Positions 50,975 through 51,545 of a stretch of 64,000 bases of DNA are shown piece by piece. The notes beneath the pieces are model-generated. The model saw only the letters and a list, made by a program, of their open reading frames with translations. It was not told the DNA's origin and did not search any database. Source of the stretch: Minisyncoccota bacterium. GTDB lineage: Bacteria > Patescibacteriota > Patescibacteriia > Patescibacteriales > UBA12465. The stretch lies in NCBI GenBank assembly GCA_021734405.1, contig JAIPJA010000002.1:1145-65144 (forward strand), read 5' to 3'. The position numbers and the translations under genes were made by a program. How positions within the stretch are numbered: the stretch's first letter is position 1; each line of letters begins with the position of its first letter.

Positions 50975-51148
50975 TTAATTTAGACCATCTAAGTAATCTA
51001 TCTTACCATTTATAGCAGCTTCAATTAAAACTCTTGGAGTTTCTTGGAAAGAAGCAGCTGACAAGAAGCTGTCAGTGGTAAGAGATGATTTAGTAATACC
51101 TAAAAGAAGTCTTTCAGTTTTAGCTGGCACTCGCGCCTTCGCTCTCAT
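50975..51148 (-). pseudogene. rpoC: Orphan fragment of the RNA polymerase beta' subunit gene (57 codons)
   Basis: Minus-strand translation is [57 protein letters not shown]. This matches the conserved near-C-terminal beta' block ([32 protein letters not shown]). There is an in-frame TAG just upstream and no further rpoC sequence on either side. Confidence 0.75.
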
Positions 51149-51545
51149 ATGCCGTAACTATAACGGCACCCGCAATACAGAGCACCGCCTACACGCCGGC
51201 ACCACCCGTTTTTCAGCCAGTATTAGTCGGTATTACCAGCGACACCCGGATCGAATCGCCTCAAAGAAAAATAGAGGCATATATATTCGCTGGAAAGTCC
51301 GACCCGTTGCCAAAGTGGCCCGATCTAATCGACCGTCCCCAACTCATGGGGAACATTACTGCCCAATGGCAACCTGGCTAAGGCCCCGGAAAGCCTACCG
51401 CACCTAGTGTAAATAATTTCCGAACCCCCCCCCATCAGGGATGGATCTCCACCGATATTAAGTAAAAAGGAGGCCTCACCTAAGCGGGGAAAAAATTTCA
51501 TGGGATCAAGCATAAACCGTAATGCAAAGGTCCCTTTTTTTATAC
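51121..51545. ncRNA. Unclassified GC-rich, highly structured element (candidate large ncRNA); strand unresolved
   Basis: GC-rich island in AT-rich DNA with nested perfect helices: 51215-20/51374-79, 51226-30/51299-303, 51236-41/51288-93, 51258-62/51274-78 and 51306-12/51367-73. Several local hairpins are also present. The overlapping ORFs translate to implausible proteins. Confidence 0.55.
51502..51541 (+). terminator. Plus-strand intrinsic terminator at the edge of the GC-rich element
   Basis: GGGATC..GCAT / ATGC..GGTCCC interrupted stem followed by T7. Confidence 0.55.

Follow-up and report, generated by a model that had tools for sequence, protein, structure and literature searches.

A GC-rich folded element overlapping a conserved open frame in the thrS/aldolase spacer of a Paceibacteria lineage

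The described systems closest to the element reported here are the dual-function RNAs and structured small-ORF mRNAs SgrS/SgrT, RNAIII/hld and SR1/SR1P (ORF, open reading frame) and type I toxin mRNAs such as hok, AapA1 and TxpA. The element lies between thrS and the gene of a DeoC-type aldolase in a stretch of 64,000 nucleotides (nt) from a Minisyncoccota bacterium (assembly GCA_021734405.1, contig JAIPJA010000002.1, positions 1,145 to 65,144 of the forward strand), hereafter called the window; all positions without a locus name refer to it. Like the dual-function RNAs, the element in its intact form resembles an independent transcription unit: a few hundred nt long, it starts at a promoter of its own, ends at an intrinsic terminator, and combines a conserved stable fold with a short ORF inside the folded RNA. 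It has no sequence or structure similarity to them, and its ORF is longer (88 amino acids) and overlaps the main fold. With the type I toxin mRNAs it has in common a small ORF with a hydrophobic N-terminus on a heavily folded RNA, an accessory, strain-variable locus in an intergenic hotspot and the lack of detectable homologues. It differs from them in that no antisense antitoxin was found, in the size of the predicted product (88 amino acids, against fewer than 60 in typical toxins) and in the hydrophobic part, which comprises about 15 residues only. The transfer-messenger RNA (tmRNA) is also a structured RNA of 300–400 nt with an internal frame, and the element has a UAGUC motif just before the block in which the frame is conserved. 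The element does not belong to this family, however, as it has no tRNA-like domain and a tag peptide would need a far shorter frame.

The GC-rich intergenic region (GC-IGR) approach of the Breaker laboratory reportedly seeks long, GC-rich, well-folding intergenic islands that match no known family, and its candidates are said to be accepted on covariation across many genomes. The element is such an island, in a genome of 31% GC. Unlike those candidates, it is represented by three sequences, shows no significant covariation and contains a conserved ORF. To our knowledge, almost no regulatory RNAs or small proteins have been characterized in the bacteria of the candidate phyla radiation (CPR), whose genomes are tiny.

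Our preferred interpretation, which we hold tentatively and rate a little below an even chance, is that the element is an orphan accessory transcript of the plus strand, which as a structured mRNA or a bifunctional RNA encodes a small protein that evolves fast. We prefer it because it accounts both for an exceptional fold of conserved architecture and for a persistently open frame, each of which is hard to explain by chance. The parts of the window copy are the following.

51133..51190, plus strand: window-specific GC-rich 5' hairpin domain, including UGCCGU/ACGGCA (51150–51168)
51215..51379, plus strand: three-way-junction core, made of helix P1, arm 1 (51226–51303) and arm 2 (51306–51373)
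51215–51220 with 51374–51379: P1 helix, AGCCAG/CTGGCT
51226–51230 with 51299–51303, 51236–51241 with 51288–51293, and 51258–51262 with 51274–51278: helices of arm 1, GTCGG/CCGAC, CCAGCG/CGCTGG and GCCTC/GAGGC
51306–51312 with 51367–51373: base helix of arm 2, GTTGCCA/TGGCAAC
51124..51381, plus strand: stop-free frame of 85 codons plus TAA, homologous to residues 7–88 of the 88-residue ORF of the sister species
51382..51501, plus strand: 3' tail, with a short hairpin (51381–51396), the conserved motif CGCACC (51399–51404) and then a window-specific insertion of about 55 nt
51502..51541, plus strand: two-tier hairpin (51502–51534, GGGAUC..GCAU-loop-AUGC..GGUCCC) followed by T7 (51535–51541)

The comparisons are based on three distinct sequence variants of the element: that of the window and those of loci L001 and L132 from the sister species. 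The GC content is 51% in the element and 31% in the window, and the most GC-rich 150-nt segments of the entire 64 kb fall in the element. An earlier inspection of the letters without database searches (the sequence-only reading) had described a structured GC island far above background at this place, with 34 of the 60 nt in 51181–51240 being G or C, five helix pairs, TATTA linkers, a C9 tract and a hairpin with T7 at 51502–51541. All of these were recovered at the positions it gave, and both the composition and the structure are confirmed, the latter by helices, z-scores and recurrence of the fold in the sister species. The nested helices are reproduced by ViennaRNA, and the plus-strand fold of 51121–51545 has a z-score of -3.8 against dinucleotide shuffles. 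For the junction core, the z-scores of the plus and minus strands are -5.2 and -4.9 in the window (51213–51381), -4.2 and -1.7 in L001, and -5.4 and -1.9 in L132. Fifteen coding pieces from the same window, folded as a control, gave z = 0.0 ± 1.25. The structure of the element is beyond chance, because its z-scores exceed the shuffles while those of the coding controls are about 0.

The minimum free energy (MFE) folds of the window, L001 and L132 sequences, computed separately, share the same closing helix (AGCCAG(G)/(C)CUGGCU) and two long arms. Arm 2 of L132 has a mostly different sequence, yet forms a hairpin arm on the same base helix. In the 5' hairpin, the substitutions between L001 and L132 retain pairing through wobble pairs or by re-registering. 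The conserved blocks shared by the window and L001 in the core are TTCAGCCAGnAnTAGTCGG and CTGCCCAATGGCAACCTGGCTA (22 of 22 nt identical); others are ATCGCC...TAGAGG, CGCACC and ATGGGAyCAAGCATwAACCGTmATGCwAAGGTCCC followed by T7–8. The 5' hairpin domain of the window (51133..51190) has no sequence counterpart in L001. The extent first proposed, 51121–51545, thus includes a conserved unit of about 51213–51541 together with two parts specific to the window, the 5' ~90 nt and the ~55 nt of the 3' tail in which the C9 tract (51425–51433) is located. The 3' tail alone has no significant structure (z = -0.5).

The strand, which had been left undecided, is the plus strand, because the minus-strand z-scores are weak in L001 and L132, L001 has a promoter on the plus strand, and the conserved hairpin, read on that strand, runs into a U-tract in both the window and L001. 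The L001 promoter matches the sigma-70 consensus at 11 of 12 positions (TTGACA-17-TATTAT, 5809–5837). The terminal hairpin is 88% identical over 50 nt to that of L001 and has a z-score of -2.8; a GC-containing hairpin followed by a U-tract, with T8 in L001, is the form of an intrinsic (Rho-independent) terminator, and the hairpin at 51502–51541 is the intrinsic terminator of the plus-strand transcript. A simple terminator scanner did not flag this hairpin, which has an internal loop in its stem. Judging from the letters, it may also terminate the aldolase gene, since AUGAAAUUUUUU follows it on the minus strand.

When L001 is the only sequence in the covariance model and supplies its MFE structure, the match in the window is a full-length one (51210–51384, plus strand; 30.1 bits, E = 6e-6). 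The sequence-only model scores 28.0 bits, so that structure adds about 2 bits. The covariance model found no paralogues in the window and no match in 17 other CPR loci. A covariation check had been proposed; the homologues gathered for it display double changes in two base pairs, a number equalled in 130 of 500 shuffles, and statistical support by the R-scape standard was not obtained, because just three distinct sequences exist. The structural case is one of thermodynamics and shared architecture, not of covariation.

The main rival explanation is a pure non-coding RNA, that is, a stand-alone small RNA (sRNA) gene of about 300–400 nt with a three-way-junction scaffold, in which the open frame is a by-product of a C-rich, stop-poor sequence. 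We regard it as possible, though less than probable. The very strong fold z-scores and the common architecture are in its favour, as are the pairing-preserving changes in the 5' hairpin and the conservation of CGCACC and the hairpin of the terminator, both of which lie beyond the stop codon; the window also retains its high GC content and its fold without a start codon. The small gain of the structure over the sequence model and the ease with which shuffles reach the two double-change pairs count against it, and so does the frame itself.

In none of the three variants does the shared plus-strand frame contain a stop. The remaining two frames of this strand contain five and none in the window, seven and three in L001, and nine and three in L132, and the three minus-strand frames have two to seven stops each. 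In L001, L132 and L133, a further locus, the shared frame is an ATG-started ORF of 88–89 codons, beginning about 14 nt past the predicted transcription start, and the ORF was predicted by gene callers in four public contigs. The predicted peptide reads MMYIIILALIAS...AQWQPG, and its N-terminal ~15 residues are hydrophobic in the sister species. An ORF as long as that of the L001 spacer is rare among dinucleotide shuffles (p ~ 0.008). When the L001 protein is compared with the window by tblastn, a single collinear high-scoring segment pair of 82 residues is obtained at 31% identity, in the same frame, and the Smith–Waterman score is 87 in this frame against 32–60 in the other five. The spacing between conserved anchors varies by 3 or 6 nt, and L132 carries a 3-nt in-frame deletion and a replacement of net +9.

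These properties are difficult for a pure non-coding RNA: two lineages that diverged independently both keep this frame free of stops, for which the joint chance is estimated at about 0.001–0.01, the anchor indels are multiples of three, and the ATG lies close behind the transcription start in an organism that makes little use of Shine–Dalgarno sites. A Shine–Dalgarno-like motif is present upstream of 3 of the 42 long ORFs in the window, and the organism appears to start translation without depending on it; with so few such sites, the lack of one before the ORF is uninformative. Identical residues are encoded by different codons in 44% of cases, against 36–42% in thrS and the aldolase gene. 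Since this rate is like that of the two genes, the 22-nt block alone is no proof of a constraint at the nucleotide level. The sequence-only reading had dismissed the two ORFs called over the island, and these are indeed meaningless (a protein search with the called 110-residue ORF, in the wrong frame, gave no match); the third plus-strand frame, 51124..51381, which is open in all three versions, had escaped it, as had a fragment of rpoC on the minus strand at 50979–51125. It had held that homologues preserving an ORF would speak against a structured RNA, and the shared stop-free frame does so in part.

Several observations weigh against our interpretation. The GC content at codon positions 1, 2 and 3 is.58,.52 and.53 in the window and.45,.44 and.39 in L001, against ~.48,.30 and.21 in the host genes; at the third position (GC3) the ORF has 0.39–0.53 and the host genes 0.18–0.25, so its composition is not host-like. 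The L001 protein has one lysine in 88 residues. No homologue of the protein was found by a word search in 5.8 billion proteins or by a hidden Markov model search among 1.84 billion representatives, the ORF has no match in Pfam, NCBIfam, PHROG or PADLOC, and its AlphaFold model is unconfident (predicted local distance difference test, pLDDT, 39.5). Outside the nucleotide-conserved blocks, the similarity of the window and L001 proteins is marginal (p 0.25 and 0.025). A second frame is open over the same region of the window, which makes openness there weak evidence alone, and the intact frame of L132 is in part an ascertainment effect, because this locus was found with a protein query. Finally, neither an antisense RNA nor any other regulator expected of a toxin-like module was found, and promoter scans revealed no conserved minus-strand promoter overlapping the transcript. 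Some of these points also support the pure non-coding RNA: the GC enrichment is even over the codon positions, as selection on helices predicts, protein homologues were not found and the AlphaFold model is poor.

Alternatively, the element could be an ordinary gene for a small protein that came from a foreign source with higher GC, and its RNA fold would be incidental. This would share the ORF evidence given above, and it fits the atypical GC content and a variable spacer that receives insertion sequences (IS) and gene fragments. We nevertheless find it quite improbable: the z-scores are -4 to -5 in independently diverged copies, 3–4 standard deviations past the coding controls, and in orthologous copies with a divergence as large as that of thrS (82% amino acid identity) a foreign GC3 should by now have fallen towards ~0.2, whereas it is 0.53 and 0.39.

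In the interpretation that we prefer, a structured mRNA or bifunctional RNA, the unit occupies the variable thrS/aldolase spacer of one small Paceibacteria lineage of the CPR. Its intact form, as in L001 and L132, comprises a near-consensus sigma-70 promoter, a predicted transcript of about 385 nt and, at the end of the latter, the conserved hairpin with its U7–8 terminator. About 165 nt of this transcript make up the GC-rich three-way junction of P1 and two long arms, an architecture that persists where arm sequences were swapped, and the junction nucleotides are also those of the C-terminal two-thirds of the 88–89-codon ORF. The fold, the strand, the promoter, the terminator, the conserved frame and the narrow distribution are results of the analysis, whereas translation of the ORF and the role of the fold are inferences. 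The fold could influence how stable the RNA is or how ribosomes reach it, by a logic such as that of type I toxin mRNAs and dual-function sRNAs.

The distribution of the element is narrow. Among 17 thrS loci retrieved from 185,579 genomes, the element is present in L001 only, in the same position between thrS and the aldolase gene; thrS is 82% identical there. The contigs L023, L061 and L062 are identical to L001, and L132 and L133 were added by a protein-level search. With them, the sister species has three sequence variants of the homologue. An exact 18-mer scan of Joint Genome Institute (JGI) metagenomes gave 37 chance coding matches and one true match, identical to L001; it missed L132, in which one base differs, and the distribution is therefore a lower bound. 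Two scans of viral contigs gave chance matches only, and blastn in its 'distant' form against phages and plasmids gave matches to the rpoC fragment only. The next aldolase relatives (62–69% identity) and their contigs are without the element, which is known from two sister species only.

In related Paceibacteria the same spacer contains an unrelated small ORF (L002, 5765–6437), methyltransferase and EamA transporter genes (L056, 4922–7384) or 67 nt only (L059, 4910–4976). Because these spacers have other content or none, the thrS/aldolase spacer is a variable hotspot and the element an accessory trait of a single narrow lineage. The L133 copy differs by one substitution, and upstream of it an ISL3 transposase takes the place of thrS. 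In this contig (positions 1–1486; European Nucleotide Archive ERZ27315937, k141_168928), the ISL3-family transposase gene ends immediately before the element. Relative to the L001 promoter, the insertion separates the -35 box from the -10 box, and a hybrid promoter-like site, TTGATA-17-TATATT, is supplied by the end of the IS.

Between L001 and L132, thrS is 98.8% identical and the element (5859–6125 and 1137–1406, respectively) about 90%, a divergence ~8-fold above that of thrS. This excess points to divergent alleles kept in the population or to exchange by recombination; it is compatible with a conflict-related role, without being a proof of it. A segment of ~60 nt, corresponding to arm 2 and the C-terminal region of the protein, is replaced between the two loci. 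In this segment L132 is closer to the window copy than L001 is, which suggests old alleles or recombination. A further explanation is a new RNA family of about 300–400 nt, specific to Paceibacteria, with a conserved three-way-junction scaffold, hypervariable arms maintained as divergent alleles in populations and small-protein coding by the same nucleotides in addition. We think it rather unlikely. If it is true, the hypervariable arms would be the signature of a conflict-related RNA (decoy, guide or toxin-control RNA), and the element would be truly bifunctional in bacteria with minimal genomes. The suggestion of an undescribed large structured RNA stands as far as 'undescribed' and 'structured' go; the element overlaps an ORF, lacks covariation and is 5'-truncated in the window. 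To call it a class of large structured RNAs is at present an overstatement, because it is known from two species only.

On the 5' side of the element the following features were identified, together with a hairpin at the other end of the spacer.

50941..50973, plus strand: symmetric terminator-like hairpin with a 14-pair stem, directly 3' of thrS
50979..51125, minus strand: fragment of rpoC (RNA polymerase beta'), 147 nt, in frame, from the region GITKxSL...SFQETxRVL
51547..51570, no strand assigned: second terminator-like hairpin, symmetric, AAAAGCGCT..AGCGCTTTT, beside the 3' end of the aldolase gene and specific to the window

The rpoC fragment constitutes residues 7–56 of a 57-residue ORF (50975..51148, minus strand). 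It corresponds to positions 1073–1126 of the 1147 in NCBIfam TIGR02386 (E 3e-16), and this match of 54 residues, with 58 bits against a cut-off of 963, identifies it as a fragment and not a full-length rpoC. By blastn it is 72–77% identical to annotated rpoC genes. It separates the thrS terminator from the element and is situated exactly at the latter's 5' boundary; the homologous L001 locus has no such fragment. In an independent Logan assembly of SRR12088350, both junctions are present and the assembly breaks inside the fragment at 51035 and 51099. These breaks on both sides suggest that the central part also occurs at another place in the sample, presumably in the true rpoC, and that the duplication is a recent one.

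The homology of the window to the L001 protein begins at residue 7 of the latter. The window frame is closed upstream by TAG at 51121–51123, with no ATG, GTG or TTG before 51305, and a promoter scan found no sigma-70-like plus-strand promoter between thrS and the element of the window. In this arrangement, the duplicated rpoC piece has replaced the promoter and the first ~6 codons of the window copy. Because it has neither promoter nor start, the window copy is probably a 5'-truncated, non-translatable remnant, and its transcription is probably at most read-through from thrS past the hairpin at 50941..50973; this hairpin, being symmetric, could terminate transcription in both directions.

One may go further and explain the window copy as the dead, decaying remnant of an accessory unit after the insertion of the rpoC fragment. 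As an explanation of its own this is improbable; it covers the window copy only and does not conflict with our preferred interpretation. The loss of the promoter and start codon agrees with it, as do the apparently recent insertion, whose middle collapses in the independent assembly, and the extra window-specific insertions. The frame is still open and the fold still exceptional, which argues against decay, though a recent inactivation would leave both.

The element belongs to no known RNA family among those searched, as had been proposed from its letters. With 4227 Rfam families, cmscan of the whole 64 kb gave nothing at the gathering score, and at E ≤ 10 on either strand the window region and L001 gave chance terminator-type matches only. 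ARAGORN found no tRNA or tmRNA genes in the 64 kb. The RNase P RNA models (RNaseP_bact_a/b and relatives) and the group I intron model RF00028 have no match at E ≤ 10 in the window or L001. A divergent known RNA, such as RNase P RNA (possibly permuted), tmRNA or a degenerate minus-strand group I intron with an rpoC 3' exon, is therefore very improbable. The window does contain the echoes GGAAAGTCCG and ACAGAGCACCGCC, which the sequence-only reading had compared with RNase P; the first is at 51292 as it stated, and the second starts at 51177, one position from where it was placed. They are not conserved in the homologue: GGAAAGTCCG aligns with GAGTAAGACCCG in L001, and the region of ACAGAGCACCGCC is specific to the window. 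In the window, GGAAAGTCCG pairs locally as 3' strands of arm 1. RNase P RNA, permuted forms included, was rejected, as the P4 pairing of CR-I (GGAAAGUCCG) with CR-V is not present in the homologue.

The motif UAGUCGG is similar both to the pre-resume motif of tmRNA and to the S element of group I introns. The tmRNA, including two-piece and permuted forms, was rejected for want of an ARAGORN or Rfam match and, by inspection, of a T-loop beside GCCGGCACCA; the element has no tRNA-like T-arm. For a group I intron speak the rpoC sequence directly 3' of the element on the minus strand and the report that some divergent Patescibacteria group I introns escape RF00028 (PMC13011429). Yet in both species the arm helices are separated from the 3' strand of P1 by just 0–1 nt when the plus strand is read and by 5 nt when the minus strand is read, which leaves no space for a P7 strand, and the P3–P7 topology of group I introns is absent. 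No exons join into one gene: rpoC is found on one side only, the window has no 5' exon, L001 has no rpoC flank, and neighbouring lineages lack the element at this locus. The minus-strand group I intron with an rpoC 3' exon was rejected on topology and on the absence of rpoC from L001. A tRNA interrupted by a divergent group I intron, an idea taken from PMC13011429, was also rejected, as there are no tRNA halves on either strand.

The gap that contains the element is bordered by thrS (49106..50887, plus strand) and the aldolase gene (51650..52579, minus strand), whose identities are supported by Pfam. It had been given as 760 nt and measures 762 nt. The aldolase of the window is identical to the protein 'MAG: aldolase [Candidatus Pacebacteria bacterium]', where MAG stands for metagenome-assembled genome, and the thrS relatives found in the synteny search are all from CPR MAGs. 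Two conserved syntenic genes, 46810–48432 (plus strand, 540 amino acids) and 52643–53542 (plus strand, 299 amino acids), have no Pfam or PADLOC match; they also adjoin thrS and the aldolase gene in several related MAGs. There is a second GC-rich intergenic island (~50%) at 41640–41810, between the ORFs 40394..41533 and 41872..42531. Its fold signal is modest (z = -2.5 for the plus strand, -1.8 for the minus strand). Rfam and tRNA searches gave no match there, and the fetched loci contain no counterpart. It was rejected as a relative of the element, the two sequences being unrelated.

The restriction of the element to two species limits its general significance for now. An island that is GC-rich and folds well in an AT-rich genome need not be a non-coding RNA, and all six frames should be compared across homologues before the ORFs over it are discarded. 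If this transcript, which varies sharply between near-identical strains, is kept both as a fold and as a frame, it would offer an accessible case in which constraints on RNA and protein overlap, and the element might mark a conflict system in these bacteria.

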